A stretch of 64,000 nucleotides of DNA from Ignavibacteria bacterium. Lineage in GTDB: Bacteria > Elusimicrobiota > Endomicrobiia > PHAN01. The translations under genes were made by a program, and so were the position numbers. The stretch is from NCBI GenBank assembly GCA_041694835.1, contig JBGFRZ010000032.1, positions 57-64,056 of the forward strand, read 5' to 3'. Shown piece by piece: positions 12,724 to 59,146 of the stretch (position 1 is its first letter; every line of letters starts with the position of its first letter). The notes under the pieces are model-generated. The model saw only the letters and a program-made list of their open reading frames with translations. It was not told the origin of the DNA and made no database searches.

Positions 12724-12751
12724 ATTAGTGATTAGTGATAGTGGTTAGTTA

Positions 12752-13023
12752 GTGTCCTGTCCCGCAAATACCTTTACATTTGAAGGGTAAGATTTGAGAC
12801 GGATTCAAGAAACGACGAGTGCGGTGTAGTCTCTGGACTACATAAACGAGGAGTGACGCAGAAGCCGTCCAAATAATACCCTTCCCGAAGGGCTGATGTC
12901 TTTTGTTCATCGTCGGCGTTGCTCGTCGCTCACATACCGCAGAGGGTATGCTTCGCTCCTCGCGCCTTGACGCTGAAACAAAATACGAACAGCGAATGTA
13001 AAGGTATTTGCGGGACAGGACAC
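12752..13023. repeat. 272-bp element bounded by perfect 29-bp inverted repeats (GTGTCCTGTCCCGCAAATACCTTTACATT / AATGTAAAGGTATTTGCGGGACAGGACAC) filling the glmS 5' leader; candidate structured leader RNA or MITE
   Basis: Exact reverse-complement termini at 12752-12780 and 12995-13023; GC-rich interior with several local hairpins (CCCTTCGGGAAGGG, GTAGTCCAGAGACTAC). Confidence 0.5.
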
Positions 13024-15181: not shown

Positions 15182-15275
15182 CCTGCCCTCAGATAGAGCC
15201 AGATTAGAATGGCGAAAATGACCGCTATTATTTTTAATTCAATGTTTTCCTTGAGTTTTTCAATTAGCTTCTTCA

Positions 15276-16067
15276 TCATTTAACATTCCTGCGCTCGGCG
15301 AATCCGTCGCCGCCTTGAGGGGTAAACATCTTGAGCATATGCTTTTCAGTTTCATCGATATTTATGTTGTAATGAAGCTGACCCCTTCTTGCAAGAGAAA
15401 CCTCTCCGGTTTCCTCCGAGACGACGATAATTACTGCGTCGGATATCTCGCTTAAGCCTAAAGCGGCTCTATGTCTTGTCGCACCGTGCGGTATTTCCTT
15501 TTCTATGCTCAAAGGGAGTATGCATCCGGCGGAGAGCAACTTGGTGTTGCTTACTATCACAGCGCCGTCGTGGAGCGGCGATTTGTCCACAAATATAGAA
15601 AGTATAAGCTCTTTCTTTACGTTCGCGTTCAAAACCGTTCCTGCATCTATGTAATTCTTAAGTCCCGTTTTCCTCTCGAAAACTATAATGGCGCCGGTTT
15701 TTGTTTTGGACAACTCCCTTATAGCATCAAATGTCTCCTTTAAGAACTCGACGTTGTCAGCCATAAAGAACTTTCCTATCGGTTGTGTCCCGAGGAAAGC
15801 AAGAACCGACCTTATTTCCTGCTGGAATATGATGGCGGCAAGTATTATGCCGGCAAGCCAAAATTGATTCAGTATCCAGTTGAATGTCTTTAAACCAAGT
15901 AATTTGGATACTATGGTGAGGAAAAAAATAAGGATTATCCCGAGGAATATCTGTATCGTCCGAGTGCCCCTGAAAAGCAAAAGGAGCCTGAAGATAATGT
16001 AACTGATTATCGCTATATCTAAAACATGAACAAGGAAATTTTTCCAGACGTCGACTAAAATATCCAT
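15276..16067 (-). CDS. cdaA: Diadenylate cyclase (c-di-AMP synthase, membrane-anchored DAC domain)
   Basis: N-terminal TM helices; DAC-domain motifs GAIIV...LHDGAVIV...GTRHRAALGLSE...DAVIIVVSEETG. Confidence 0.85.
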   Translation of the reverse strand: MDILVDVWKNFLVHVLDIAIISYIIFRLLLLFRGTRTIQIFLGIILIFFLTIVSKLLGLKTFNWILNQFWLAGIILAAIIFQQEIRSVLAFLGTQPIGKFFMADNVEFLKETFDAIRELSKTKTGAIIVFERKTGLKNYIDAGTVLNANVKKELILSIFVDKSPLHDGAVIVSNTKLLSAGCILPLSIEKEIPHGATRHRAALGLSEISDAVIIVVSEETGEVSLARRGQLHYNINIDETEKHMLKMFTPQGGDGFAERRNVK

Positions 16068-16076
16068 TGCATTATT

Positions 16077-16109
16077 TTATCTCGTTAGAGGTCTCCGTGG
16101 TTTGTTCAT
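16077..16109 (-). other. Conserved leader cassette copy X: 10-codon uORF (MNKPRRPLTR) about 9 nt upstream of the cdaA ATG
   Basis: Shares CAGRGTYGATGAACAAACC plus about 45 nt of upstream similarity with copies at 42688-42720 and 43805-43837. Confidence 0.35.
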
Positions 16110-16221
16110 CGACTCTGTATTCTTTGGCTTTACCATAAACCCTCTAAAACTTCTAATGTGGCTTCCCATAAATCTCCTGATACCGGGGATTCAAATGTAA
16201 ACACCACACTAACGGGTTTTA

Positions 16222-23420: not shown

Positions 23421-23606
23421 AAATAGAGGATAGAGATGAGAGAACAGAGGTGATAGTTCAAGAGTTGAGAGTTTAGAGTGTAGAGTTGAGAGATGTCGCC
23501 GGGTATCTCTAAACTCTAAACTAAGTTCTCTAAACTTGTCCTCTCGTCTCTGACCCTTGTCCCCTGACCTCTGACCTCTGTCCTCTGCTGCTCTTGTGCA
23601 CTATCA
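23421..23606. repeat. Low-complexity purine/pyrimidine dyad element A
   Basis: Purine arm AATAGAGGATAGAGATGAGAGAACAGAGG..., centre GTCGCCGGG, pyrimidine arm ...CCTCTGACCTCTGTCCTCTGCTGCTCTTGTGCAC. Confidence 0.7.
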
Positions 23607-23608
23607 CT

Positions 23609-25249
23609 TTATAGACGAATAAGTGACTTCGGCGACTTATTTTCGTTGATGCCGCTTGAAAATTTAATCCTGGACAAACCCGATGCCATCTTCGAGGCCA
23701 TTGCGATAACTATATCGGGAGTAAAAATTAAATCGATATTGCGGCCTTCAAAGAAATCTCCTTTAACTTTAAGCAACGCGTCTTTTTGAGTTGGCATCTC
23801 AACCTCTTTGACGAATATTACATTCTGTAAAGCGATTTCTTTGAACAACTTAAAAGGATTCGTCTCACCGCCAACGAAAGTATTTTTTGTCAACAAACCG
23901 CCTGAATTATTGATAGCATACGCCTCTGTCCAGACAGAGACATATTTGGTCTGACCATCCCGTTCTATTTTCATCTCCGGCGATTTCGCCCAGATATACA
24001 ATTCCTCGCCGCCATCATCCATACTCTCGCTTTTTGCTATGGAGTTGTAAGATTCGTTGATTTTCCATCCGTTCAAAAATATTTCAGATTTCATATCGTC
24101 TTTACCGTCGACAACTTTTCTGCGCGCTTTAATTTCATACGAGTCCTTTCTATTAGTCAGCGTCACTTCGGCCGATTCCAACTTGATGTTATCGCCTCTG
24201 TCGAAAAAATATTTGGGCCAATCGGTCATGGCGTCGGGCAGATTTTCGGAAAACTTTATTTTTGCGTTGCAAATATCCATGCGATGGCCTGTCGTGCCCG
24301 AATATGCATCTTTGAAAAAACCCGCATACCGGTACGAATCGCGTTTTGTTATGTTAACAAACTGAATCGTATCCGCCTCCGGCCTTAAAAACTGCTGTTC
24401 AACCCTCACAAGATTTCCGAATCTATCGGTCAAAGTTCTTCCCGAAGATATATCTGCCTGTTTTATCTCGTTCGTGATGTCGCGCGCAACAACTATGTCG
24501 GCTTTCACATCCCTGATCATCTCCCGAAGTTCTTGTTTTATCTGCGCAAGTTCGGAAGCGACATCATCTCTTTTGGTTTTTTCGTCCTCCTCAACTTTTT
24601 CGTCGCTCTTTTCTTCCAATCTCTTTCCCTCTTCGAGCGCTCCATTGAAAGTCTCCTGCCACTCGTTCTGACGTGATTGAAGTTCATCGGCGGACAAAAT
24701 TTTTTCAATGGGCAATCCTGTTTCATCGAGCTTCGCCAAATTGCCCGATTCGACTGTTATGGACTGGCTCATCATTATATCACTGAACTCGACGGCGCCT
24801 TCAAAAACGACAAGCTCGCCGTATGAATCTATCCCGAAATCCGTCCCTCTGACCGAAGCAACCGCAACAGGGGTCACAACCCTGAACTTCGAGCCTCCAG
24901 CCAGTTTTACCTTCGCTCTTATCTTTCCCATTATCAGTGAAAACACACTTTCGTCTTTTGATGGGCTTTTCACTTCCATCTCGGAGTTTTCACGAACATA
25001 TATCTTTGATTCGCCATCAAGAAGCACTGCCTGCGAGTTGGAGGCGGTCTTTATTTTGTCGAGATGCGAAACTCCGTCCCCCATCCTGGCTTCCCGCCAA
25101 ACCCCGGATCGCATGGCCGCCACAGGGCCAACGGTTGCAATTATTTTTACTTCAGAAAATAAATCAGACGCCGCAAACGCACATATAAAAATCGACACTA
25201 AAATTTTATATCTCATAAAAACCTCCCGCTGCGCGGATATATTTTTCAC
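23609..25249 (-). CDS. Secreted FecR-domain protein with a central coiled-coil/charged region
   Basis: Signal peptide; N-terminal FecR-like fold (VTPVAVASVRGTDF); E/K-rich middle segment. Confidence 0.5.
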   Translation of the reverse strand: MKNISAQREVFMRYKILVSIFICAFAASDLFSEVKIIATVGPVAAMRSGVWREARMGDGVSHLDKIKTASNSQAVLLDGESKIYVRENSEMEVKSPSKDESVFSLIMGKIRAKVKLAGGSKFRVVTPVAVASVRGTDFGIDSYGELVVFEGAVEFSDIMMSQSITVESGNLAKLDETGLPIEKILSADELQSRQNEWQETFNGALEEGKRLEEKSDEKVEEDEKTKRDDVASELAQIKQELREMIRDVKADIVVARDITNEIKQADISSGRTLTDRFGNLVRVEQQFLRPEADTIQFVNITKRDSYRYAGFFKDAYSGTTGHRMDICNAKIKFSENLPDAMTDWPKYFFDRGDNIKLESAEVTLTNRKDSYEIKARRKVVDGKDDMKSEIFLNGWKINESYNSIAKSESMDDGGEELYIWAKSPEMKIERDGQTKYVSVWTEAYAINNSGGLLTKNTFVGGETNPFKLFKEIALQNVIFVKEVEMPTQKDALLKVKGDFFEGRNIDLIFTPDIVIAMASKMASGLSRIKFSSGINENKSPKSLIRL

Positions 25250-25438
25250 TATTATGAAATTGTTGAAAAACCCATCTTTTTCACTTAAAGAGCAGTTTTT
25301 TAACGGTTAAAAGTTTCAATCAGACCGCAAAACTCCTCGCTTTGCTCGTCGGACATTGCGGTCTAAACGATTTCAACTTTTAACCTGAAACTGCCAAATC
25401 GTTCAAAAGATTAAGGTTTTTCAACGAGCTCATTATAA
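25250..25438. mobile_element. Roughly 190-bp imperfect-palindrome element, copy 1 (ERIC/Correia-like MITE candidate)
   Basis: Terminal inverted repeats TATTATGAAATTGTTGAAAAACC ... GGTTTTTCAACGAGCTCATTATAA; nested internal stems GGCAGTTTC/GAAACTGCC, GGTTAAAAGTT/AACTTTTAACC, GACCGCAA/TTGCGGTC. Confidence 0.65.
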
Positions 25439-30061: not shown

Positions 30062-31507
30062 TCATTTTGCCAGTTCTGTTTTTGCTTCCGAAATATCCAC
30101 TCCGGTATTTTCATATTTTCTGATTATCCTTCTTAAGATATCTTTTTTTTCTCTTTCCGAAATACCGCGGTCCTTCAGTTGATAATAATATCGCATTGAA
30201 GTGTCGAACTCAATCTTTCTGTTGTCGATATCGGATTTTGCCGTAGAAATTCTCGGCGCTTTCTTTTCAACCGAAATTTCACGAGGCGGAATATATTCCA
30301 CAGCCGGCGACCTTTCCGCTTTCGGTTCTTCCTTTTCTTTTTCAGACGCAAGTAGTGATTCTAGTTCTTTCTTTAATCTGTCTTTCTCGTTCTCCAACCT
30401 CTCTACTTCTTTCAGGAGTTTTTCATTCTGGGACTTTTCCGTGAACAATTTTTCACTCAACTCTTTTAGTTTTTTGCTTTCGGGCGGTTTTCCGAATCTC
30501 ATATTAAGTGAAATCCTCTGAATGTCTCCGGAGTTCTTTATCCCAACCAAAGGGAATATATAAGAATAATTGAATCCAAACCATTTGAGTGAATGGCCGA
30601 AACCGACAGCAAACCTTCTCAGTTCCCTGCTTCCAAATGTCATGCCGCATCTTATGGCCGTTGCTCCATATTCTCCGAAATCAAAATGCCTTTCAGCCCC
30701 GAATGAAAACACATAGTCTAAGATGTTATTCGAGTACTCCTGAGCTGAAAAATCAGCGGAGAGATTTATCAGGGTCGTGTTCATTGCAAAGCCAATCGTT
30801 GATTTCATTTTTTTCGTGTCACCCGAGTTTTCAAACGACATATCCGGCTGATTGATGTCCTTGATAGAGAGCCCGATTTTGTAGTTTTCAGAGATGTTAT
30901 ACAAGATACCGGCATCCAGAGAGAAGAGCGTCTTCGACTTCCCAGTGAGATGGTCGGTTATGCCCCGTTTTGCTTTGCCAGTTTCATCCACGGAATTAAA
31001 GGAATAATCATCGGTTCCGATAGATTTTCTTAAAATTTTAGCAGTCAATCCGAAAACAATTTTTTTATATATTCCCGAGAGTGAAAAAGCGTAAGTCTCA
31101 TCCTTGTAGAACTCTCCGCCCAATAAAAAATATCCGAAAGCTGGCACATAACCCTTGTAAGGCAGCCCCGCCGCCAAATATACTTCCGACAATTTAGAGC
31201 CATCGGTTAATTTTGGATAAAGCGTTGTATAGGATGTGAATATCTCCGATGTTTTTATATTGTAAAGGCCGGCCGGGTTGTAGAAAATCGACTCGATGTC
31301 ATCCCCTGAAGCAACATAAGTCCCGCATACCCCGGAAGATCGGGAAGCATAAAGACAGGGGATAGTGAATAGCGAATAGCATATAGCGAATAGAGAATAG
31401 AGAATAGAGAATAGAGGATAGAGATTAGAGGTTAGGAAATGGAAATTATTACTCCTCTCCCTATCCGCTCGTCTATCTTCTCTCATCTCCGACCTCTGTC
31501 CTCTCAT
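30062..31507 (-). CDS. Putative outer-membrane beta-barrel protein (NPAGL-type N-terminal motif) with a C-terminal charged coiled-coil extension; start codon uncertain
   Basis: IFYNPAGL motif; beta-barrel-like middle; about 150-aa K/E-rich C-terminus. The first 50 or so codons are read through repeat element C and there is no in-frame ATG or GTG after the repeat. Confidence 0.45.
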   Translation of the reverse strand: MRGQRSEMREDRRADRERSNNFHFLTSNLYPLFSILYSLFAICYSLFTIPCLYASRSSGVCGTYVASGDDIESIFYNPAGLYNIKTSEIFTSYTTLYPKLTDGSKLSEVYLAAGLPYKGYVPAFGYFLLGGEFYKDETYAFSLSGIYKKIVFGLTAKILRKSIGTDDYSFNSVDETGKAKRGITDHLTGKSKTLFSLDAGILYNISENYKIGLSIKDINQPDMSFENSGDTKKMKSTIGFAMNTTLINLSADFSAQEYSNNILDYVFSFGAERHFDFGEYGATAIRCGMTFGSRELRRFAVGFGHSLKWFGFNYSYIFPLVGIKNSGDIQRISLNMRFGKPPESKKLKELSEKLFTEKSQNEKLLKEVERLENEKDRLKKELESLLASEKEKEEPKAERSPAVEYIPPREISVEKKAPRISTAKSDIDNRKIEFDTSMRYYYQLKDRGISEREKKDILRRIIRKYENTGVDISEAKTELAK

Positions 31508-31520
31508 CTCTGACCTCTCA
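31359..31520. repeat. Low-complexity purine/pyrimidine dyad element C
   Basis: GATAGTGAATAGCGAATAGCATATAGCGAATAGAGAATAGAG...GAGGTTAGGAAATGGAAATT...CTCTCATCTCCGACCTCTGTCCTCTCATCTCTGACCTCTCA. Confidence 0.7.
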
Positions 31521-31535
31521 CATTAGTACCCTCTT

Positions 31536-34500
31536 TCATCTTGATACCGTCACAGTTCCGTTTATTACTTTGTCGTCGGATTCAATCTGATAGATATAAA
31601 TTCCCGAGGGCACTTTGTTTCCGAATTCGTCGTCGCCATCCCACCTTAAAGATGTTTCACGGTTTGGTCCCCTTTTATTCAGTTTTTTGACAAACCGCCC
31701 CATTTTGTCGAATATAAATCCGACGACTCTTTCTTCAATTCCCGGCGGGCCGTCAAAATTTATAATCAAAAAATCATTTTTATTGTCGCCGTTCGGGGTT
31801 ATTATTTTCGGATAAACGTCATCTTTTCCTACCGAGAATGTTGAGCGATTCGTTAGTTTTAGTTGAAATTTTCCCAGAACTGACGCTGCCACTGAAATCG
31901 TCTTGTTGAATCTGTCGACGGCACCACCGAATCTGATCCATCTCACTCCGTTGAACCAGTAAACGGCATACTCGCTTTCATAAGAACCCGGGGACATCAC
32001 CGCAGAACCCCTGTCAAAGTAAGTAAACGATATATTGAAAGTTTGTTCTTTTGGAACATTTTTTTCTTTATTTGATTTTATATCCCGAAGTGCTACAACA
32101 AAAGATTTTACCACGCGGCCGATTTTTTCCTCAGGCACTTCTGTAATCCTGAGCACTGAGTTCTCAGGCAAAATGGCCGATGTCTCAACAAACAAGTCTT
32201 TATTGTCGCTCATTACTATTATAACCGGCGCAGTCTTCGATGCCACTATTGCCGACGGCAGGCTTTCGTTTGAATATATATCCACAGCCTTTATCGTGTA
32301 ATAATAAACGTTTTTTTTTGTGTCTTGAGAAAATTCGTTCGACTTTAACGGAAGCATCGTTATTTTTTCGTATATCCCATCCATCGAAGTGCTCCTGTAA
32401 ACAAGATAACCGTCGATGTCGTAAATCGGGCTCAGGTCCTCGTTGTATTTAACTTCATCCCAAAATATTTGAAAAATCCCGCCCGAAAAACTCCCGCGAA
32501 CTCCGGTGGGAGCAAGTGGGGGCATTTTATCGACGACCTTATCGGTCATAACGTTGACAATATCAGTAGGGGCGGTTATTATTCCGTCGCCATTGAAGCC
32601 ATATAGACGGTAGTAGTATGTGGTGGAATGGCTCAAATTTCCATCGGTATAAGTTGAAGAAGAACCAGATATATTGTCGCTTACAACTGAAAAAAATAAG
32701 CCGTCAAGGGATCTCTCGAGTCTAAACTTGCTGGAGCCGCCCGTCGGAGATTGCCAGGAGAGCGTAATTGAATTTTTTGTTTTGGCTATACTCCCCAAAT
32801 TTCCGGGCGGATTGGCCAGGGTGTATTTTGAAACTACCGATGAACCGAATGAAACGCCGCTTGCATTCCCCGCTTTGATATATCTTGAATATTGTGTATT
32901 GGGTTCTAAACCGATTTCGTTCCAAGATATTGTTTCGTTTCCTTCAAGATTTTTCAACAGATGATTATCACCGGCTCTATAAATCTGATAATATGTCGCA
33001 GATGATGTTATCTCCCATGTCCAGTTGATCGCCACCGTGCTAACGGCTACCCCGCGAAAACCCAACGGCTCTGAAGGAATTGCCGGAAGTGTGATAGTTG
33101 AGATTGTTGTATCATATATCGTGGGTATACCCTCGCTATTGAACGCCTGAACCTTGTAGTAATATGTAGTCGCAGGCTCTAACCCTGCCGAGTCAGTAAA
33201 TGTTGTGCCCGTTTGGTTGTTTGCAAATGAGCTCAAGGTAAAGGTAGAGGTGAAGAAGTTATTCGTTGAGCGCAATACTCCCCATCTGGTTGATGCCGGA
33301 TTTCCGTTATTGCTCCATGTGATTTCTATTGAATGTGAAGTCCTCTTTAAAACATAACTATCAACGGGTGGCATCGCCATGGTATATCTTGAAGCGACGT
33401 TGGATGAAGATATTGATACGCTATTATATGCCGCCACATACCTGCTATAATTAGTATTAGCGGAAAAATTAGTTTCAAGCCAGATCGTCGTTCCGTGCGG
33501 CAACTCTGATAGCAATGCGTTTGTGGAACTAAATATCCTGAAACCATCTTCGTCAGGGGAGTTGTCTTTCCATGACCATAAAATCGAACCTGTCGACAAA
33601 ACCATGCCGCTAAACTCCGAAGGAGCGGATGGAACTCCGATGGGGCGGGTTGAAACGACGGAGGAAAAGGCACTTATAAAAATCTGCGGTGGAGCATCGT
33701 AAGAGTTCATCTTGTAAAAATATGTCGTTCCGTTGGTGACAGAGGTATCAACATAAGTATTGCTACGCGTAGTTCCTATAAGGGAATAGGTATTTCCGTC
33801 GGTTGAACGGTGAATTTCGTAGTAATCGAAGTCAAGATAACCGAGCTGCCCGAGCATATCATTCCAAAAAAGCTCAACCAACCCGCTTGAAGCCACTGAT
33901 TTGAGCCCGGTTGGAGGAGCGGGAACAATATCAAGGGCATAGCTGAACGCCTGTGTGAGCGACACAGTCGGCTCATCGATGGGAGAGATATTTCCGTCGG
34001 CGTCTTTTGATTTAATTGAAAAATAATATGTTGAAGAAGGGAAAAGACCGGAAATTCCGGTAATCTCTTCGGAGCCTGGAGATTGGGGGGACGGTGTATT
34101 ATTAAGCGAAGTGGCGACACTCCACCATGCAGTGGTATCTCCCAAAAGTGAGTTTATGGAAAACGTGGCGTATTTTATGATGTACTCTGAAACTTTCTTG
34201 TTCTGAGGAATATCTCCGGGGGCAATCCATGAGAGTTTGATCTCCCCTTCGCTCGCCCCTGTTACAGCAACAATGGATGTAACCGCTCTCGGCGGATAAA
34301 TATCCGCGATATAGTGTGAATTTTCATCCGACCATACGCTCTTCAACAAGCCCGAATCTATTGAAGCAACTGAAAAATAATATGTCGTTCTTATGGCAAG
34401 TTTTTTTATCAATATACTGTTAGTCGTGCCGATTCTTTTGGGCCTCGGATAGTTTCCCGAAAACGGTGTCGCCCATTGCGGACTCACGACATAACTTGAA

Positions 34501-36581: not shown

Positions 36582-36758
36582 TGTTTCGGTAGCCCAGCCG
36601 GCATCCGTTCAAACCCGAACCCCGTCGCCTTTCAACGACGGATTGTCCCATAACGCGGGATTTAGCCCTGTTGGCTTTGCGTCCCCCGGTTTCCCGGCAT
36701 CCCGACACAAAATCGGAACGTTCCCATATGACCAGCAGGGAAGGTTTGCCTTTGTCGC

Positions 36759-36946
36759 TATAATGAGATTATTGAAAAACCCATCTTTTTCACTTAAAGG
36801 GCAGTTTCTTAACGGTTAAAAGTTTCAATCAGACCGCAAAACTCCTCGCTTTGCTCGTCAGACATTGCGGTCTAAACGATTTCAACTTTTAACCTGAAAC
36901 TGCCAAATCGTTCAAAAGATTAAGGTTTTTCAACGAGCTCATAATA
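36759..36946. mobile_element. Roughly 190-bp imperfect-palindrome element, copy 2
   Basis: Differs from copy 1 at only a few positions; terminal repeats TATAATGAGATTATTGAAAAACC ... GGTTTTTCAACGAGCTCATAATA. Confidence 0.65.
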
Positions 36947-39672: not shown

Positions 39673-41515
39673 TCTCTGCGTCTATAGAAACACTAACCGA
39701 ATAATTCCTTGAGCTCCGAACAGCAGAAATAATTTTCGAAAAATCGCCGTTTCCCTTCAAAATTATTTTCCAGAGATACCGCTTCCTTAATTTCTTCCGA
39801 TAATCACTTGATGGACCGACGATTTCCGCCTCTAAGTTGTTTTCGTTTAATATCTTTTCCATGAGAGTGGACGTTTTTTCGGCGTATAACTTGGCCAACT
39901 TATCATTTTTGCTCCTGAAGGTCAGCGTTATCAGACGGGCGTAAGGAGGGTATTTGAGTTTTTTTCTTTGTTTCAACTCTTCGGAATAAAACTCCTCATA
40001 ATTTAATTTGAAGGGGTAGTAATCCGGGAAGTGGGTTTCGACATAGAGCTCGGGCTCTTCGGCTTTCTTTGATAAAAGTTCGCTATAATCCGCCATCTTC
40101 AAAAATATTTTTTCATTGGAAAAATACTCCGGATGCATGAAATCGAAATCCGCATTCAATAAAATGACAAGTCCTATATCAGACGACACCATATAATGCC
40201 TGGGAGGATGTGTGGCGATGATGAAATCGGCTGATAACGACTCTTTATTTTTATTGCTTTTGTATGAATTCCTGGCGTCGAGATCGTAACGGGTTATAGT
40301 CGCACACGGATAAAGCTGTCTTAAGGACTCCTCGATTTTTTGCGTTCCAAAAGAAAGAGCGGTAAGATTCCGAGAGCCGCAGATATTGCATAATGGGGCA
40401 TAGACGATCTGTCTGCCACAGTAGTTGCATCGGAGTATTTTTTCTTTCCCGGCGATGTAGAGCGTGAGGGGTATGTCGCAGTCTTCGCATTTCAAAATCC
40501 TTTTGCATGAGCCGCAGTAGTATCCCCCGGAAAAACCTTTCAGCGGATAGTGTATAAGCGTGGTAAGCTTTTTGATGTAATTTCTGTCGATACTTTCCTT
40601 TAAAATTGAGATAATGTCATAATTCCTGCTCTTATATTTTTTAACGATTTCCCAATGATTTTTTTTATACGCATCGGGAGGTTTTTCCGTCAACTTTTTC
40701 ACGCCGCCTTCTTTGATTTTGGAATAGATGTCGACTGAGAACGCGGATCCTCCGAAAATAACTCTTATCTTATATCGCTCCGATTTTTTGAGCGCCACGT
40801 TTCTTGTGTTGTAATAAGGGCGCCGTCCATCCTTGTGGGCGTAGTCGTACTCTCTGTCAACAATTATGGTCCCGAGGTTGTTGAGTGGCAAAAACACGCT
40901 TCTTCTTGTGCCTATCACAAAACTGCATTCGTTCAAGAGTAGTTTTTCGAATGTTTCCGATTGCATTTTTTTTGATAAATCCGAACTCCAGACAACGGGC
41001 TCGAATCTGGCGTAATAATTTTTCGCCCAAACAACATCCGAAAGCGTTGGTAGAACAAGAAGCACGCTTTTTTTTGCGCTGAGCCCATCTGATATTTCTT
41101 TTTTGTAAAAATCATATCTTTCATCGTTCCCGAGGAATGCGGCGAAAAGAGTACTTTTGTCTTTTCCATTATTTATCTCTGGATTTTTTGATGCGGTTTT
41201 TATGTGTTTAAAATCAATCGGATATATCAGATTCAACACCGCGCCAACGGAAACAAAGTAATGCTCGCTCAAGGCATTTGCGAATGCGAGGGCTTTTTCG
41301 TCAATAACCGGGGTTTCGTCCACTGATGAGATTACTTCCTTTAATTGATGCTTAAGATGAGGTTCTTTTTTGCCAACATCGACGACATATCCAAGGCGGG
41401 ACGTGCTTCCGAAAGGGACATTCACCCTTGAACCGACAGATAGATTTATGCTCACAGGGACAGCATAATCAAACTCTCCGTCGGGAGGCTTTGGAAATAC
41501 TACTTTTGCAAACAT
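39662..41515 (-). CDS. PriA-like protein with degenerate ATPase motifs (primosomal protein N' homolog lacking Walker A/B and the arginine finger)
   Basis: PriA-type N-terminal 3'-DNA-binding domain (FDYAVP...RVNVPFG), motif Ia LLVLPTL, PriA Cys-rich zinc module (CGSC...CEDC...CNYC...CNIC); Walker A position reads GNDER, DEEH reads DREY, the GRAGR region is absent. Confidence 0.65.
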   Translation of the reverse strand: MFAKVVFPKPPDGEFDYAVPVSINLSVGSRVNVPFGSTSRLGYVVDVGKKEPHLKHQLKEVISSVDETPVIDEKALAFANALSEHYFVSVGAVLNLIYPIDFKHIKTASKNPEINNGKDKSTLFAAFLGNDERYDFYKKEISDGLSAKKSVLLVLPTLSDVVWAKNYYARFEPVVWSSDLSKKMQSETFEKLLLNECSFVIGTRRSVFLPLNNLGTIIVDREYDYAHKDGRRPYYNTRNVALKKSERYKIRVIFGGSAFSVDIYSKIKEGGVKKLTEKPPDAYKKNHWEIVKKYKSRNYDIISILKESIDRNYIKKLTTLIHYPLKGFSGGYYCGSCKRILKCEDCDIPLTLYIAGKEKILRCNYCGRQIVYAPLCNICGSRNLTALSFGTQKIEESLRQLYPCATITRYDLDARNSYKSNKNKESLSADFIIATHPPRHYMVSSDIGLVILLNADFDFMHPEYFSNEKIFLKMADYSELLSKKAEEPELYVETHFPDYYPFKLNYEEFYSEELKQRKKLKYPPYARLITLTFRSKNDKLAKLYAEKTSTLMEKILNENNLEAEIVGPSSDYRKKLRKRYLWKIILKGNGDFSKIISAVRSSRNYSVSVSIDAESAA

Positions 41516-41520
41516 ATTTC

Positions 41521-41565
41521 GCTATTTGCTATTTGCTATTCGCTATTCGCTATCTATAGCGCGAC
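41521..41565. repeat. Short low-complexity element D (GCTATTTGCTATTTGCTATTCGCTATTCGCTATCTATAGCG)
   Basis: CTATTCGCTATTC unit shared with elements C, E and G; supplies the last codons and the TAG stop of the SpoIID-like gene. Confidence 0.5.
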
Positions 41566-42691
41566 GAACAACCGTTCCGGGATAATAAAATTTTAATATC
41601 TGGACGTAATCCCGCCCTTCATCGGCCATACCTTTGGCGCCGGCCTGACAAAGTCCCACCCCATGGCCCCAACCGGAACCGCGAAACTCAAAAGAGTCTT
41701 TATGTCTCACAACCGCCGTAAGCTTCGTGCTCCTCATTCGCCACGGGTCCAGCGCCAGGCGGAATTTTCCGGCATGAATCAATGTCTTGCCTGCGGTGTG
41801 GCTCACTCTTATGTGCTTTGCCCGCCCGGATACACTTCGCCCAACAATCTCAAGATTCTTTATTTTTCCGACTTTATATCCGGAAACGTACATCTTCTTT
41901 CTTATCAATTCTCCGTCGAAAACATGTGTCCAGTTAAAATGCTTATAATGAGTGCAAAATTTGCAAACCCTGGGAACAAAGTAATGCGGAATTTCGTTTG
42001 TCATATTCCAGACATTGGCTATTTCTTCGGTGTGTCCGCCACAGCTTGCATGGTAAACGGCGTTTACAACCTCGCCTTTTCTATCATAAAGAACCTCGCC
42101 TTTTGTTTCGAAGACCGCCCTATCCGTGGCAGGATTTTCGACTTCGAGGCCGCCGTAAACCTGGCAATGAACCGTAGAACATACATCGAAACCATCTGCT
42201 CTGTGGCGACCTGAATTCTTCCAGACAAAACTCCTTGCCGCCACAGCCTGTGCTTTCAAAGCCTCGGGTGGCCATGAGGGACTCATCTCCTTCGGAAGCA
42301 CCCCGCGGATGTAGTTGTCTATCCCGAGCTCGTTGATAACGTTCAACCCGTTTGAGGTTTTTAAAATCAAAATCGAATCCCTGTATCTTCTGCCGTTTAT
42401 TTTTACATGCTCATCGCCGACGGGGACGAGCCTAACGGGCAAATTATATCCCTTGCCATCGATCAAAAGAGAGTCTTTTCTTATGCGCGCCAGATAATCG
42501 TTTGAATCGTTGAAAGTTCTTTTTTTTCCGCTTTTTATCTCATAGACATAATAATTATTACCTGAAACATTGAAACCCGGAACATCCTTGATTATCCCAA
42601 CTTTGATTATGTCCCTCGAAGCAAAAACAATTTGATAAAGACAAAGCATGAAGCAGAGCGAAAATATCACTAAATGTAAAATTTTTTTCAC
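41543..42691 (-). CDS. SpoIID/LytB-domain protein (amidase-enhancer family), secreted; start proposed at GTG 42691
   Basis: GFDVCSTVHCQVYGG SpoIID motif. A GTG start gives a clean signal peptide (V)KKILHLVIFSLCFMLCLYQIVFA; the longer ATG-initiated ORF to 42775 reads through the conserved leader cassette. Confidence 0.65.
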   Translation of the reverse strand: MKKILHLVIFSLCFMLCLYQIVFASRDIIKVGIIKDVPGFNVSGNNYYVYEIKSGKKRTFNDSNDYLARIRKDSLLIDGKGYNLPVRLVPVGDEHVKINGRRYRDSILILKTSNGLNVINELGIDNYIRGVLPKEMSPSWPPEALKAQAVAARSFVWKNSGRHRADGFDVCSTVHCQVYGGLEVENPATDRAVFETKGEVLYDRKGEVVNAVYHASCGGHTEEIANVWNMTNEIPHYFVPRVCKFCTHYKHFNWTHVFDGELIRKKMYVSGYKVGKIKNLEIVGRSVSGRAKHIRVSHTAGKTLIHAGKFRLALDPWRMRSTKLTAVVRHKDSFEFRGSGWGHGVGLCQAGAKGMADEGRDYVQILKFYYPGTVVRRAIDSE

Positions 42692-42720
42692 CCCGTCAGA
42701 AGCTCCGATGGTTTGTTCAT
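42688..42720 (-). other. Conserved leader cassette copy Y: 10-codon uORF (MNKPSELLTG) whose TGA stop overlaps the proposed GTG start of the SpoIID-like gene (GTGA)
   Basis: AGGGTTGATGAACAAACCATCGGAGCTTCTGACGGGGTGA on the minus strand. Confidence 0.4.
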
Positions 42721-42771
42721 CAACCCTGAATTTTTGGGCTTTGCTCGTAAATTTTCTAAAACTACATGGGT

Positions 42772-42984
42772 TCATTTTTTAAAAAGATTGATAATTAAAG
42801 TTAGAATGATTGATAAAATTATCGAAGTAGTGAACGGGAAGAAAAATACGAAATTTTCTTTTTTGATGTATATATCCCCCGGAAGGCGCCCAATAAACGG
42901 AATTTTATGCCCCATGTAAAAAAATATGCCCAAGACAATCATAATTAAACCCGTTATTATAAAAATTTTTCCGAAATTGGACAT
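42772..42984 (-). CDS. DUF2905-family small membrane protein (start at the internal Met; longer ORF to 43119 is repeat-derived)
   Basis: MSNFGKIFIITGLIMIVLGIFFYMG...GRLPGDIYIKKENFVFFFPFTTSIILSIILTLI. Confidence 0.5.
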   Translation of the reverse strand: MSNFGKIFIITGLIMIVLGIFFYMGHKIPFIGRLPGDIYIKKENFVFFFPFTTSIILSIILTLIINLFKK

Positions 42985-43005: not shown

Positions 43006-43250
43006 AGTGCACAAGAGCGCAAGAGCACAAGTCAGAGGACAGAGTTCAGGGAACAGAGAACAGAGGTCAGAGGCTAGAGGCGAGGGACAAGAGGTTAGGG
43101 AATGGAAATTTTTATTCAATTTCTTGTCCCCTATCCTCTATTCTCTATACGCTATTCTCTCACCTCTGACCTCTCACCTCTCATCTCTCATCTCTATCCT
43201 CTATTCACTATTCGCTATTCGCTGTCCTACAGTCTCTAATCTCTGCTGCT
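43006..43250. repeat. Low-complexity purine/pyrimidine dyad element E
   Basis: GCACAAGAGCGCAAGAGCACAAGTCAGAGGACAGAG...GGTTAGGGAATGGAAATTTTTATTC...TCACCTCTGACCTCTCACCTCTCATCTC...CTATTCACTATTCGCTATTCGC; the central GGAAATGGAAATT motif is shared with element C. Confidence 0.7.
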
Positions 43251-43808
43251 TTTTTGTTCTACCCGTTTACCTCTCTCTCCCTTGTCGCTTTCCTGTCTGC
43301 TGAATATGCATCCGCAGTATTTCTGACTGTAGAGCCCAAGTTTTTTTATCTTCTCTTTTGCTTCGCGGTATTTCTTCCTCACATCGACATAAATAAATTC
43401 AACATTCCATTTTTGCGAAAGAGTCTCCGCTATTCCTCTTATTAAATCGTGCTTTTGATAAGGACTTGCAAGAAGTGTCGTCGAAAAGCAGTCGAATATT
43501 TTGTCGCCTCTAAAGCAACGTCTCGCCGTTTCTTCGAGTCGGTTTATATAACAATACTTGCATCTATCAGCCGAAGCTTTCGCCGCATCAAGCCACTTTT
43601 CCATGCTATGAGCCGGGATATTTATAGATGAGATTCCTTTAAGGGCGTTGAATTTTTCAAGGGCGTCAAAACGGAGATATGATTCCTGTTCGGGGTGTAT
43701 GTTCGGATTATACCATAAACCGTAGACATCAAAATCCATCTCTATTCGCTCCAGCATCGGAGCGGTGCAGATAGCACAACACTGATGAAGCAAAAGTTTC
43801 TTTCTCAC
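43236..43808 (-). CDS. queH: Epoxyqueuosine reductase QueH (DUF208)
   Basis: LLLHQCCAICT N-terminal Cys cluster, YVDVRK..GLY..KYCGC; GTG start; last 5 or so codons run into element E. Confidence 0.8.
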   Translation of the reverse strand: MRKKLLLHQCCAICTAPMLERIEMDFDVYGLWYNPNIHPEQESYLRFDALEKFNALKGISSINIPAHSMEKWLDAAKASADRCKYCYINRLEETARRCFRGDKIFDCFSTTLLASPYQKHDLIRGIAETLSQKWNVEFIYVDVRKKYREAKEKIKKLGLYSQKYCGCIFSRQESDKGERGKRVEQKSSRD

Positions 43809-43837
43809 CAGATCAGAAGTCCGCGCAATTTGTTCAT
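43805..43837 (-). other. Conserved leader cassette copy Z: 10-codon uORF (MNKLRGLLIW) whose TGA stop overlaps the queH GTG start (GTGA)
   Basis: AGGGTTGATGAACAAATTGCGCGGACTTCTGATCTGGTGA on the minus strand. Confidence 0.4.
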
Positions 43838-43863
43838 CAACCCTGAAGTTTTTGGCTTTACTC

Positions 43864-44889
43864 TTACTGGAAAAGTGAATTTTTCTTGTCAGGGACTGGA
43901 ATTTTTAGATGTCCGTAGGCTTTTTCGGTGGCGATGCGGCCGCGGGGTGTGCGGGCTATGAATCCCTCCTTTATCAGATACGGCTCATAGACATCGGACA
44001 CTGTGTCGACATCCTCGGAAACTGATATTGCCACAGATTCTACTCCGACGGGACCACCGTTAAATTTTCCCACTATGCTTAAAAGAATCTTCCTGTCCAT
44101 CTCGTCGAGACCGCCTTCATCCACCCTCATCTTTAAAAGAGATTCCCTCGCTACATCCATAGTAATTATGCCATCGGATTTAACATCGGCAAAATCTCTT
44201 ATCCTTTTAAGCAGTCGGTTCGCGATTCTCGGAGTACCCCTTGAACGAGCGGCTATTTCCGCTGATGCGGTGGATTCGATGCGGATGTCAAGTATCTTGC
44301 TAGAGCGGGCGAGTATTTGATTCAATTCCTCCGTTTGGTAATATTCAAGATGTTCGACGATCCCAAATCTTTCCCTTAGGGGCGTGCTCAATAATCCCGC
44401 TCGTGTCGTCGCCCCTATCAAAGTAAATCTGGGAACTGGCAGACGAAATGTCCTTGCGCTCGGGCCCTGACCAAGAATGATATCAAGCTGAAAATCCTCG
44501 AGAACGGGATAGAGAGCTTCTTCTACAAGATGATTCAATCTATGAATCTCGTCGATGAAAAGGACGTCTCCTTCCGACAAACTCGTCAGTATCGCCGCAA
44601 GGTCGCCGACACGAACCAATATGGGGCCGGATGTTGCCCTCAGATTCACCGATAACTCCTTTGAGACAATGTGAGCGAGTGTGGTTTTGCCAAGACCTGG
44701 TGGCGAATAAAAAAGACAGTGGTCAAGTGGTTCGCCCCTTTTTTTGGCTGCCTGTAAAAAAACCTTAAGGTTCTCTTTCATTTTTTCCTGGCCAACGAAC
44801 TCATCAAGCGTTTTTGGCCTTAGGGAGTTTTCGAACGGGGTTTCTTGCGCGAATTTTTCGGCGATTGTAATTTCTTCATTATTCTCCAT
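43864..44889 (-). CDS. ruvB: Holliday junction branch-migration helicase RuvB
   Basis: Walker A PPGLGKTT, Walker B DEIHRL, sensor motifs. Confidence 0.95.
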
Positions 44890-54270: not shown

Positions 54271-54377
54271 GCACAAGGCACAAGAGCATAAGTCAAGAGC
54301 ATAAGTGCACAAGAGCACAGTAAAAACCTCACCTCTCATCTCTATGCTCTATCTTCTATTCACTATTTGTTATTTGC
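54271..54377. repeat. Low-complexity element F (GCACAAGAGCATAAG module followed by TCACCTCTCATCTCTAT and CTATTCACTATTTG modules)
   Basis: Shares modules with elements A, E, G and H. Confidence 0.6.
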
Positions 54378-55874
54378 TTTGTATATCTTTTTAGAAAGTT
54401 CGATGGCCTTGAAAAGCCCCTTTGCCTTGTTCAATGTTTCCTGATACTCCCTCTCGGGGACCGAGTTGGCGACAATCCCGGCGCCAGCCTGAACGTATGC
54501 CGTTTTGTTCTTGTACACAATGGTTCTTATAGTTATCGCCATGTCCATATTGCCGCTGTATGAAAAATATCCGACGGCTCCGGCATAGGGACCCCGCCCG
54601 ACGGTTTCGAGTTCGTTTATTATCTGCATTGCGCGCACTTTAGGGGCGCCGCTAACGGTGCCCGCCGGGAAGCACGCCCTGAAAAGGTCGAAGGAATCTA
54701 TTTTTTTTCTCAGCTTTCCCGTAACTGTCGAAACCATATGTATCACGTGCGAATACTTCTCTATGTTCATAAGCTCCGTAACCCTGATGGATTTTAAATC
54801 GCAGACCCTTGAAAGATCGTTTCTGCCCAAATCTACAAGCATTATGTGTTCCGCTTTTTCCTTCGGATCCGATGTCAGGGCGTTTATCAATTTGATGTCG
54901 TCTTCGGCGGTTTTTCCCCTGTAACGCGTCCCCGCTATGGGCTTTGTCACGGCGATTTCATCCTCTCTCCTTACGAGTATTTCAGGCGAGGAGCCAATGA
55001 TATAAAAATTTTTCAGATTGAAGTAATACATATAAGGGGATGGATTGACGATTCTGAGCGCTCTGTATATGTCAAAAGTCCTGGATGTAGTTTCGACATC
55101 AAACCTCTGAGAAAGAACCACCTGTATTATATCGCCGCTTTTTATATGTTTTTTAGCCGTGGCCACGTTTTCTATGAACTTTTTTTTCGAGATGTTCGGC
55201 CGAATTTTTGCATGACTTTTAGAAGTGCTGATTAACCGACATAGAGAGCGCGTTTTAATCCTTTTTATCGCGTCGTCGATATTTTTGCACGCATCCTTGT
55301 AAAGCGCAGGACTCATTTTTTTTGTTCTTACATCAATGCAAGACACTATTTTCATGGTATGATAAAGATGGTCGAATACTATCATGTTGTTGGTAATCAT
55401 GAAAACCATCTCGGGCAGTTTAAGATCGCATGGCGGAAAAGCTGGCAGGTCCTCGATGAATTTCACTATATCGTAGGCGGCATAACCCACCGCACCGCCC
55501 CAGAATCTTGGAAGCTTTTCCGATTGAAAAGGAAGATAACCTTTCATTAGATTTTTTAGCTCTTCTATAGGATCTGAGTTTTTTTTCTTTGAAGAAAGTT
55601 TTCCTTGCACATATACCGACACCTCGCCGCTCTTCGAAATAAAAAGAGTATCGGGACGGTGCGATATAAAAGAATACCTACCCCACCTCTCACCTCCCTC
55701 GACACTTTCAAGGAGACACGAATATTTTTCTCCGGCGGCGACTTTAAGATATACGGAAACCGGCGTCTCAAAGTCCGCTATTATCTCCTTGTAAACCGGA
55801 ATGAGATTGTATTTTCCGACAAGCTTTTTTACTTCGTTGAAAGTCAGCGAAAAATCACGCGATGTATTTTTCAT
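54363..55874 (-). CDS. trpE: Anthranilate synthase component I
   Basis: 503 aa; chorismate-binding family motifs (GAVGYFSYSGNMDMAITIRT). Confidence 0.9.
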   Translation of the reverse strand: MKNTSRDFSLTFNEVKKLVGKYNLIPVYKEIIADFETPVSVYLKVAAGEKYSCLLESVEGGERWGRYSFISHRPDTLFISKSGEVSVYVQGKLSSKKKNSDPIEELKNLMKGYLPFQSEKLPRFWGGAVGYAAYDIVKFIEDLPAFPPCDLKLPEMVFMITNNMIVFDHLYHTMKIVSCIDVRTKKMSPALYKDACKNIDDAIKRIKTRSLCRLISTSKSHAKIRPNISKKKFIENVATAKKHIKSGDIIQVVLSQRFDVETTSRTFDIYRALRIVNPSPYMYYFNLKNFYIIGSSPEILVRREDEIAVTKPIAGTRYRGKTAEDDIKLINALTSDPKEKAEHIMLVDLGRNDLSRVCDLKSIRVTELMNIEKYSHVIHMVSTVTGKLRKKIDSFDLFRACFPAGTVSGAPKVRAMQIINELETVGRGPYAGAVGYFSYSGNMDMAITIRTIVYKNKTAYVQAGAGIVANSVPEREYQETLNKAKGLFKAIELSKKIYKANNK

Positions 55875-56241: not shown

Positions 56242-56340
56242 AAGAACTCCAATTCCCCGCCTTGACAGGAACACCGTCCACATGGACTCCAATGCCATTG
56301 AATACGGAGTCCGCAGCGGCTGGGGAAATCTGGAACCATA

Positions 56341-56550
56341 GAGCACAAGAACACAAGTCAGAGGTCAGAGGTGAGAGATGAGAGAATAGCGTATAGAGGA
56401 TAGAGGATAGCAAATAGCAAATAGCGAATAGTGGTTGGTGACTGGTGACTTGTGGCTGGAGGAAATGAGCAACGAGCCACGAGCCACTAATCCTCTGTCC
56501 TCTGTCCTCTGTCCTCTGTTCTCTGTCCCCTGTTCTCTGCTCTCGGCGGT
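56341..56550. repeat. Low-complexity purine/pyrimidine dyad element G
   Basis: GAGCACAAGAACACAAGTCAGAGGTCAGAGGTGAGAGATGAGAGAATAGCG...GGATAGCAAATAGCAAATAGCGAATAG...CCTCTGTCCTCTGTCCTCTGTCC. Confidence 0.7.
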
Positions 56551-56568
56551 AATATTTTTCATTCGATG

Positions 56569-57585
56569 TTATATCCTGATCGGCACGCCTCTCTTTTTGA
56601 GGTAAAGTTTTAATTCTTTTATGCCGATTTCTCTAAAGTGAAAAAGAGAGGCGGCGAGGCATGCCGAAGCTTTAGCCTCCGCGAAACCCTCGTAAAAATC
56701 TCCTTTTGAACCGGCTCCGCCCGAAGCTATGACTGGTATCGAGACTGCCTCAACCACGGATTTCGTCAGTTCGATATCATAACCGTCTTTTGTGCCGTCC
56801 TTGTCCATACTCGTGAGTAAAATCTCGCCCGCTCCCATTTTTTCAACGTATCTCGCCCATCTCACAACATCTAATCCAGTATTCTTTCTTCCGCCGTAAG
56901 TATAAACCTCCCATCTTAATCGAGAGGTGAGAGGTGAGAGGTCAGAGGTCAGAGATGAGAGGTGAGTTTTTTCTCTGTCCCCCGTTCTCTGTTCTCTGTT
57001 CTCTGTCTTCTGTCCCCTGTCCTCTGTCCTCTGTTCTCTGTCCTCTGTCCTCTGTCCTCTGTTTTCTGTCCTCTGCTGCTCTTGTGCACTTGTGCTCTTG
57101 TGCACTTGTGCTCTGCCACTCTGTTCTCTGTCCTCTGTCCTCTGTTCTCTGTCTTCTGTCCTCTGTCCTCTGTTCTCCGCTCTCTGTCTTTTTGCGTCAA
57201 TTGCTATGACTATGCATTGGCTCCCAAACTTTTTTGCCGCTCCTTTTATGAAATCCGGATTTTCTACGGCGGAGGTGTTGATTGAAACTTTGTCGGCGCC
57301 GTTGGCCAGAAGCGTCTGAATATCTTTTAAATTTCTTACCCCGCCTCCAACGGTAAGTGGTATGAAGACGCTTTGCGCCGTTTTTTTTACGACATTTAAA
57401 AGTATCTTTCTTTTTTCGCAAGATGCGGTTATGTCGAGAAAAACAAGCTCGTCGGCGCTTTCTTTGTCGTACTTCTTTGCGACTTCAACAGGGTCGCCCG
57501 CGTCCCTCAAATTCAAAAACCTCGTTCCCTTTACGACGCGACCGGCATTTACGTCCAAACAAGGAATTATTCTTTTAGTAAGCAT
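56569..57585 (-). CDS. hisF: Imidazole glycerol phosphate synthase cyclase subunit HisF carrying an in-frame insertion of about 91 aa low-complexity sequence
   Basis: N-terminal residues 1-133 and C-terminal residues 225-338 are a complete HisF (RIIPCLDV...AIDAKR // [13 protein letters not shown]...IASGGAG). The intervening [23 protein letters not shown]... stretch is encoded by repeat element H. Confidence 0.85.
56921..57192. repeat. Low-complexity element H, inserted in-frame inside hisF
   Basis: GAGAGGTGAGAGGTCAGAGG purine block followed by about 230 nt of (CTCTGTCCTCTGTTCTCTGT)n plus a CTCTTGTGCACTTGTGCTCTTGTGCAC module; all three forward frames are open. Confidence 0.75.
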
Positions 57586-58928: not shown

Positions 58929-58958
58929 TTTTAATCACAAATTTTCAATCTTGAATGC

Positions 58959-59146
58959 TATATTGAGATTATTGAAAAACCCATCTTTTTCACTTAAAGG
59001 GCAGTTTCTTAACGGTTAAAAGTTTCAATCAGACCGCAAAACTCCTCGCTTTGCTCGTCAGACATTGCGGTCTAAACGATTTCAACTTTTAACCTGAAAC
59101 TGCCAAATCGTTCAAAAAATTAAGGTTTTTCAACGAGCTCATATTA
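58959..59146. mobile_element. Roughly 190-bp imperfect-palindrome element, copy 3 (between hisH and hisB, overlapping the hisB stop codon)
   Basis: Near-identical to copies 1 and 2; terminal repeats TATATTGAGATTATTGAAAAACC ... GGTTTTTCAACGAGCTCATATTAA. Confidence 0.65.

Follow-up and report, generated by a model that had tools for sequence, protein, structure and literature searches.

Mycobacterial interspersed repetitive units (MIRUs; Supply et al. 1997, summarised in PMC12548453 and PMC3184786) are repeats of 40-100 bp which are co-transcribed in operons, are associated with tetranucleotide direct repeats, are absent from the homologous sites of M. leprae and contain open reading frames (ORFs) that overlap the adjacent genes (PMC3184786). 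They are inserted at start codons and their internal ORF couples at -4 (PMC12548453), an overlap supposed to preserve the translational coupling of the downstream gene. A repeat of comparable architecture is described here in a 64,000-nt stretch of DNA (contig JBGFRZ010000032.1; hereafter the window) that belongs to an Elusimicrobiota-like metagenome-assembled genome (MAG) of 44% GC. Three copies are found in sense orientation, in the spacers folP/cdaA (copy A), DUF2905/spoIID (copy B) and ruvB/queH (copy C). All coordinates of elements and genes refer to the minus strand of the window. The explanation that we favour, with a probability of about 0.5, is that of a lineage-specific insertion resembling MIRUs and miniature inverted-repeat transposable elements (MITEs), the internal short ORF of which (uORF) keeps the downstream gene translationally coupled.

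The likeness to MIRUs is one of architecture and not of homology. As for MIRUs, the copies (i) are short repeats (up to 138 nt for copy A, 80 nt for copy B and 55 nt for copy C) dispersed in operon spacers and oriented as the flanking genes; (ii) correspond to empty orthologous sites in relatives (12 of 12 without the block); (iii) show tetranucleotide direct repeats at the filled sites (TAAA/TAAA, TGAA/TGAA and TAAG/TGAG); (iv) contain, in two cases out of three, an ORF whose stop codon overlaps the downstream start by 4 nt. On the contrary, the ORF of the third copy (cdaA) stops 9 nt before the start, and the start of the uORF does not overlap the upstream stop. Moreover, only 3 copies are found and each is single (no array of the unit with Tandem Repeats Finder), while MIRUs form arrays of variable number tandem repeats. 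The phylum also differs, and sequence similarity to MIRUs is thus not expected, given both this distance and the base composition.

Other described repeats share part of these features. The upstream inverted-repeat sequences of Neisseria (REP2) and Borrelia (PMC3184786) are likewise dispersed directly 5' of unrelated genes and supply a ribosome-binding site (RBS) or a start codon. However, they have a recognisable promoter and two internal stem-loops, while neither a sigma-70 promoter nor a significant stem-loop was found here, and the present element supplies a relay ORF instead of the ATG context of the gene itself. Putative mobile promoters (PMPs), i.e., sequences of 50-100 nt with at least 80% identity (Matus-Garcia et al. 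2012, PMC3488235), are also conserved 5' blocks preceding non-homologous genes in one genome, and are read as reused regulatory DNA. The identity of 68-75% over 56 nt observed here lies below that threshold, which is reached by the 32-nt core alone (81-91%). Finally, the copies resemble MITEs by being small, non-coding and present several times; the short direct repeats on both sides and the imperfect inverted repeats at the ends may be further points in common. They differ from MITEs by the shortness and weakness of these terminal repeats (copy A 8/11, copy B about 5/9, one end being absent from copy C), by the lack of a known partner transposase and by the fact that every copy is oriented alike with respect to the genes.

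The repeat search of the window grouped the three copies as one family (D8), and the nhmmer profile matched them at 16070-16134 (E=5e-16), 42681-42745 (E=6e-19) and 43799-43862 (E=7e-19). The recurrence of a block 5' of three genes, noticed in a first-pass annotation made from the letters and the ORFs of the window, is thus confirmed by two methods. Neither of them revealed a further convincing copy within the 64 kb; a fourth nhmmer match, at 4273-4323 (E=0.098), was dropped as weak and located within a coding region. The ungapped block common to the three copies measures 56 nt (68-75% identity). It contains a core of 32 nt, TAAAGCCAAAAAyTTCAGrGTyGATGAACAAA, with 81-91% identity (26-29/32), whose consensus gave 0 matches across 100 shuffles. 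In contrast, the tail, i.e., the 21 nt located 3' of the core and corresponding to the body of the uORF, reaches only 48-57% (10-12/21). That the sequence upstream is better conserved than the peptide had been stated in the same annotation, and these counts agree with it. Such a difference argues for a constraint on the core and not for recent copying alone. Two details have to be corrected. Of the consensus proposed for the three copies, the 5' part (..AGTTTTAGA..) is common to the cdaA and spoIID copies only and is lacking in copy C; and the queH copy does not overlap the stop codon of ruvB, the similarity beginning 3 nt past that stop.

The best homologues of the proteins of the window are labelled Endomicrobiia or Elusimicrobiota, the nearest relatives having 52-58% identity for SpoIID and 69-72% for CdaA. 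The gene orders yebC-ruvCAB-queH-(DUF2905)-spoIID-priA and tilS-hpt-ftsH-folE-folP-cdaA-glmM are kept in these relatives. The block was detected by nhmmer in none (0/12) of the orthologous loci. In the relative locus L073 the junctions are direct overlaps (TAATG for ruvB/queH, ATGA for DUF2905/spoIID), while in L074, L071 and L072 the same two junctions consist of unrelated spacers of 15-76 nt. The folP/cdaA spacer measures 5-42 nt in L075-L079 and L200-L202 vs. 154 nt in the window. Since the block is missing from 12 orthologous loci, the junctions of which are tight or overlapping, the three copies appear as insertions specific to this lineage, a conclusion which is well supported by the comparison of sequences and which fits the mobile character that had been supposed for the block.

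The borders of the copies carry possible marks of insertion. The flanks read TAAA|ACCCGTTAG...CGAGA|TAAA for copy A, TGAA|CCCATGTAG...CGGGG|TGAA for copy B and TAAG|AGTAAAGCC...TCTGG|TGAG for copy C; i.e., the 4-nt direct repeats are perfect twice (A and B) and match at 3/4 positions once (C). When the element and one repeat are removed, the junctions obtained are plausible as ancestral ones: copy B gives AAAAAATGAAAAAAATT, with an ATGA overlap as in L073, copy C gives CAGTGAGAAAG, with a GTGA overlap, and copy A leaves a 12-nt spacer. The ends of copy A are complementary in register at 8 positions out of 11 (binomial P about 0.002), and the five available termini fit the imperfect inverted motif CCCG(N)TYAG. 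Transposition with target duplication may be inferred from these borders. An argument of the same kind is a further repeat of this genome, about 190 nt long and clearly MITE-like (see below).

Each copy contains ATG-AAC-AAA followed by 7 variable codons and by a stop codon placed in the same column of the alignment (TAA for copy A and TGA for the two others). The three peptides are those listed in the first-pass annotation (Table 1). In copies B and C the TGA of the uORF is part of a GTGA, hence a 4-nt overlap with the downstream start, also as claimed: GTG 42691-42689 and TGA 42690-42688 for spoIID (GTGA at 42691-42688), GTG 43808-43806 and TGA 43807-43805 for queH (GTGA at 43808-43805). The distance of 9 nt between the TAA of copy A (16079-16077) and the ATG of cdaA (16067) was found again. 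The frame of the uORF of copy A is open from ATG 16169, leading to an ORF of 30 codons (16077-16169) provided with an AGGAG Shine-Dalgarno sequence (-7.4 kcal/mol). The uORFs start 26-51 nt past the stop codon of the upstream gene, and copy B alone has an ATG overlapping the upstream TGA, in a different frame. The AGGG supposed to stand 5 nt before the ATG of all copies ends in fact 3 nt before it, and is AGAG in the cdaA copy. When columns are shuffled, the three stops coincide in about 4-5% of the trials (P about 0.04-0.05); the shared stop column is a suggestive, not a strong, indication.

According to the explanation we favour, the element would have entered a T-R-A-R tetranucleotide holding the stop codon of the junction and would have duplicated it. 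The left copy of the repeat would preserve the stop of the upstream gene, while the right copy, together with the terminal G of the element, would form GTGA, i.e., a new GTG start in the old frame, overlapped by TGA. The GTG starts would thus arise mechanically from the last G of the element and the duplicated TGA, the stop of the uORF being the duplicated target. The overlapping TGA would close an ORF of 10-11 codons borne by the element (TTG/ATG-AAC-AAA...), which in the longest copy measures 30 codons and has its own AGGAG. Ribosomes translating the relay ORF would terminate at the downstream start and re-initiate there, so that genes formerly coupled would stay coupled despite an insertion of 55-140 nt. 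The 32-nt core, which is A-rich, unstructured and nearly invariant, would be the translation-initiation region of the element; a function of this core as promoter or protein-binding site is possible as well. Probably, the repeat thus allows inserted DNA to occupy an operon while the next gene remains expressed. The proposal of the first-pass annotation, a leader coupling the translation of the main gene, is supported as regards the insertion and the -4 overlap architecture at spoIID and queH, but not as regards the RBS and attenuation (see below).

A broader form of this explanation is put forward more tentatively, as possible but not the expected outcome. It supposes undescribed non-autonomous elements of Elusimicrobiota which target the stop tetranucleotide of ATGA/GTGA overlaps, regenerate both the stop and a GTG, and carry a relay ORF, so that they could settle at operon junctions with no polar effect, their core being perhaps a portable promoter; they would be an independent and convergent counterpart of MIRUs. 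If true, this would be a second and unrelated case, outside Mycobacterium, of a repeat inserted at start codons and protecting the downstream gene via a coupling ORF. «Operon-safe» insertion would then be suggested as a general solution in gene-dense genomes, and the conversion of ATG into GTG at the edge of the insertion would offer a natural test case for termination-reinitiation.

Several observations weigh against a mobile relay element. (i) As regards the ends, those of copy B are complementary at about 5/9 positions only; copy C is devoid of the 5' end and its left repeat is off by one base; copy A admits more than one left boundary, an inner 5' motif, CCACATTAG, yielding no direct repeat. 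(ii) As regards the repeats, their T-R-A part is not independent evidence, stop codons being expected at both ends for functional reasons, so that only the fourth base is informative; with three copies only, the statistics on terminal inverted repeats, target-site duplication and ORFs are weak and partly post hoc. (iii) The minus strand carries every one of the roughly 48 long ORFs found in the window, which makes the co-orientation of elements and genes less telling than it seems; many of these ORFs have -4 or -1 stop/start overlaps. (iv) No partner transposase or insertion sequence with the same ends is apparent in the 64-kb window and none is known. (v) The relatives are distant (SpoIID 52-58%, CdaA 69-72%), hence the «empty sites» are approximate and the dating is loose. 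(vi) The uORF of copy A does not overlap the start of cdaA. (vii) No Shine-Dalgarno sequence was detected for the uORFs, the pairing with the anti-Shine-Dalgarno sequence (-2.4 to -3.8 kcal/mol) not exceeding that of randomly chosen positions (median -3.0); the RBS formerly attributed to the cassette is thus not supported, and the translation of the uORF is inferred from the sequence. (viii) No other copy was found in the public collections scanned (GTDB representatives, JGI and IMG/VR). The 68 matches of an 18-base pattern in GTDB representative genomes are single, distributed among unrelated taxa and at chance level; a 21-base pattern gave 2 matches in JGI metagenome contigs, both in GC-rich coding DNA; the 15-base core gave single matches only among the IMG/VR matches listed. 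When 199 loci were re-scanned with nhmmer, the matches (17-22 bits) were confined to the seeded pattern, vs. 54-64 bits for the true copies.

Part of these observations is what would be expected if the block were neutral or selfish DNA that had reached tolerant spacers through transposition or gene conversion, the ORF, its stop and GTGA being by-products or due to chance. The absence of a detectable Shine-Dalgarno sequence for the uORF, the non-conserved peptide and the modest probability attached to the stop column (P about 0.04-0.05) agree with it, and further lineage-specific repeats abound between the genes of this genome (heptamer arrays, hairpin element of 190 nt, see below). However, it does not account for a core far better conserved than the tail of the same copies, nor for the fact that 3 copies out of 3 are sense-oriented and end at or beside a start codon. 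Moreover, two essential-looking genes rely on the GTG made at the edge of the element, and the stop is retained as TGA, TGA or TAA. Purely neutral DNA is therefore considered unlikely.

The contrast between the core (81-91% identity) and its flanks (48-57%) is also that expected of a protein-binding site. The core could be a promoter/operator cassette giving the three genes an internal and co-regulated transcription start; the ATG of the uORF would then lie inside the -10 element and would be untranscribed. The consensus of sigma-28/FliA-type promoters is TAAAGwwy-N11-ryCGAwrn. The core of copy A reads TAAAGCCA-N11-GTCGATGA, i.e., it is sigma-28-like, and its spacing from TAAA to CGAT equals that of the consensus. 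The absence of a conserved RNA structure speaks in the same direction. Upstream repeats that bring along promoter, RBS and start codon have been described in Neisseria (REP2) and Borrelia (PMC3184786), as have the putative mobile promoters (PMC3488235). On the other hand, the critical CGA is replaced by TGA in copies B and C, and copy B has in addition CAAA at -35. A relaxed sigma-28-like pattern matches 6 times in the window, close to the 3.6 expected from shuffles, without any other gene-proximal site, and no sigma-70-type promoter was found in the three copies. The invariant AACAAA, the equal length of the ORFs and the exact register with the start codons are left unexplained; the three genes are functionally unrelated and no alternative sigma factor was identified. 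A promoter as the reason for the block is thus judged rather improbable, a little more so than neutral DNA. It must be noticed that it is compatible with the evidence for insertion and could hold in addition to the relay ORF.

The third alternative concerns the uORF itself, which could encode a regulatory leader peptide, i.e., an attenuator or a ribosome-stalling sensor in which the translation of MNK... controls transcription termination or the access to the start, the signal being a metabolite or a charged tRNA. A short ORF directly 5' of the gene and with conserved first codons speaks for such a device. Nevertheless, the copies contain no terminator-like hairpin and no U-tract. Their folding energies are not significant, with z from -0.85 to +0.75 and a lowest value on either strand of -1.62 (plus strand of copy A). 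The consensus fold (alifold) amounts to -4.3 kcal/mol with an unfavourable covariation term, i.e., there is no conserved RNA structure in the three copies. Rfam 15 gave no match at the gathering score, nor anything relevant when matches with E as high as 10 were considered. Moreover, the body of the peptide is variable and without any run of regulatory codons, and the three downstream genes have no common pathway. Attenuation had been put forward in the first-pass annotation. Since neither a terminator nor alternative hairpins nor a conserved fold were found, it is not supported, and a leader peptide of this kind is very unlikely.

The relay ORF supposes that the downstream genes start at the edge of the element, and the comparison with relatives bears on this point (Table 1). 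For spoIID and queH, the GTG coincides precisely in position with the ATG used in the relatives. From GTG 42691, the length of SpoIID up to the DIIK/RVG motif equals that of the protein of a relative from its ATG, and the homologues (364-390 aa) are without N-terminal extension; the start of this gene is thus placed at the edge of the element and not at ATG 42775. From its GTG, QueH begins with VRKKLLLHQCC vs. MERKLLLHQCC in the closest relative, i.e., with the same distance to the HQCC motif, and GTG 43808 is the best-supported start on the basis of homology. It had been taken for the annotated start, while the source record uses an internal ATG (173 aa, P0243), 17 codons too short and with the loss of the conserved HQCC motif. 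The 410-aa SpoIID of the source record (P0001) reads through copy B and is 28 codons too long. It is likely that the element led to erroneous start codons for both genes in the source record; it misleads the gene callers in this MAG, SpoIID being over-long and QueH over-short.

Table 1. Positions of the copies, of their direct repeats and uORFs, and of the neighbouring genes in the window.
Feature	Coordinates	Strand	Remark
cdaA (TIGR00159)	15276..16067	-	ATG 16067 as in relatives (MDILVDVWKNF vs MEFIASLWKNF and others)
Copy A, right direct repeat TAAA	16076..16079	-	its TAA (16079-16077) is the uORF stop
Copy A, uORF MNKPRRPLTR + TAA	16077..16109	-	10 codons
Copy A, block common to all copies	16080-16135	-	5' stretch to about 16152 common with copy B
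Copy A (element of the folP-cdaA spacer)	16080..16217	-	outer boundary just inside the TAAA direct repeats
Copy A, left direct repeat TAAA	16218..16221	-	directly 3' of the folP stop TGA (16224-16222)
SpoIID/LytB-domain gene from GTG 42691 (382 aa)	41543..42691	-	source record: ATG 42775, 410 aa, P0001
Copy B, right direct repeat TGAA	42687..42690	-	TGA (42690-42688) is the uORF stop; GTGA with G 42691
Copy B, uORF MNKPSELLTG + TGA	42688..42720	-	10 codons; TTG 42723 a possible alternative start
Copy B (DUF2905-spoIID element, 80 nt)	42691..42770	-	conserved block 42691-42746
Copy B, left direct repeat TGAA	42771..42774	-	includes the DUF2905 stop TGA (42774-42772)
Gene of a DUF2905 small membrane protein	42772..42984	-	upstream neighbour of copy B
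queH from GTG 43808 (190 aa)	43236..43808	-	Pfam QueH profile matched from its position 1, at residue 5
Copy C, right repeat TGAG	43804..43807	-	TGA (43807-43805) is the uORF stop; overlaps GTG 43808-43806
Copy C, uORF MNKLRGLLIW + TGA	43805..43837	-	10 codons; TTG 43840 a possible alternative start
Copy C (ruvB-queH element, 55 nt)	43808..43862	-	without the 5' part of copies A and B
Copy C, left repeat-like TAAG	43863..43866	-	includes the ruvB stop TAA (43866-43864)

The frame of the downstream gene (SKAxxFRVDEQ..) is fully open in copy B only, which leads to the 410-aa SpoIID of the source record. Hence a last alternative, namely that the block is coding and represents an N-terminal extension in the downstream frame (SKAxxFRVDEQ...), with the peptide SKAQKFRVDEQTIGASDG at the N-terminus of SpoIID. 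In copy B this frame is indeed open, beginning with an ATG which shares bases with the stop codon of DUF2905 (ATGA), and several of the differences between copies are synonymous or conservative when read in it. However, in copy C no start codon precedes the GTG in this frame, while in copy A a TAG and a TAA close the frame, which moreover is not that of cdaA. The variable positions are distributed 9/6/10 on codon positions 1/2/3 (hand count), i.e., without coding signature, and the extension is lacking in the homologues of 364-390 aa. A concatenated-peptide search for proteins reading through the element gave no candidates, and a profile search of 1.84 billion protein representatives for the read-through segment gave one unrelated match (P0123). 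Being closed or start-less in two copies, the reading in the frame of the gene itself was rejected, and a coding role of this kind is highly improbable.

Other features were noticed near the loci. A conserved ORF of 33 codons (MMKKLIEKLKENIELKIIAVIFAILIWLYLRAG) is located at 15178-15279 (-) between cdaA and glmM, the start of glmM being overlapped as ATGA; a 33-aa ORF occupies the same cdaA/glmM place in the relatives L076, L079 and L200-L202. In L078 (2524-3451) the place of folP is held by two ORFs (175 and 101 aa) without Pfam match and no Pterin_bind gene is present; folP may have been disrupted or replaced there.

A second dispersed repeat, of about 190 nt, is present in three copies with 92-97% identity (25242-25437, 36751-36946 and 58951-59146, minus strand), each of which occupies the gap upstream of another gene. 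This repeat forms one long and near-perfect hairpin (-74.7 kcal/mol, z = -8.5) and looks MITE-like; Rfam gave only generic hairpin matches for it. An 11-nt match between this repeat and copy B (ACGAGCAAAGC) was judged due to chance (E=0.86). Directly 3' of one of the hairpin copies and 5' of an ORF of 1681 aa, a match to the c-di-GMP-I riboswitch was obtained at 36585-36760 (-), with 39.5 bits (gathering score 35) and a length of 176 nt for a model of 87 positions.

Degenerate heptamer arrays are found at 23425-23602, 31351-31541, 43014-43260, 54295-54378, 56340-56554 and 56923-57219. They consist of inverted halves (AGAGGTS... then CTCTGWC...), leading to long imperfect hairpins in intergenic gaps, and are probably located at operon borders. 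The array at 43014-43260 lies between queH and the DUF2905 gene, where the relatives L073 and L074 have few bases. Other heptamers occur directly 5' of genes: AATAGCG/AATAGCA, repeated five times, precede the start of priA at 41515-41553 (-), and CACTAAT-like heptamers precede, at about 12724-12760 (-), the ORF starting at 12723.

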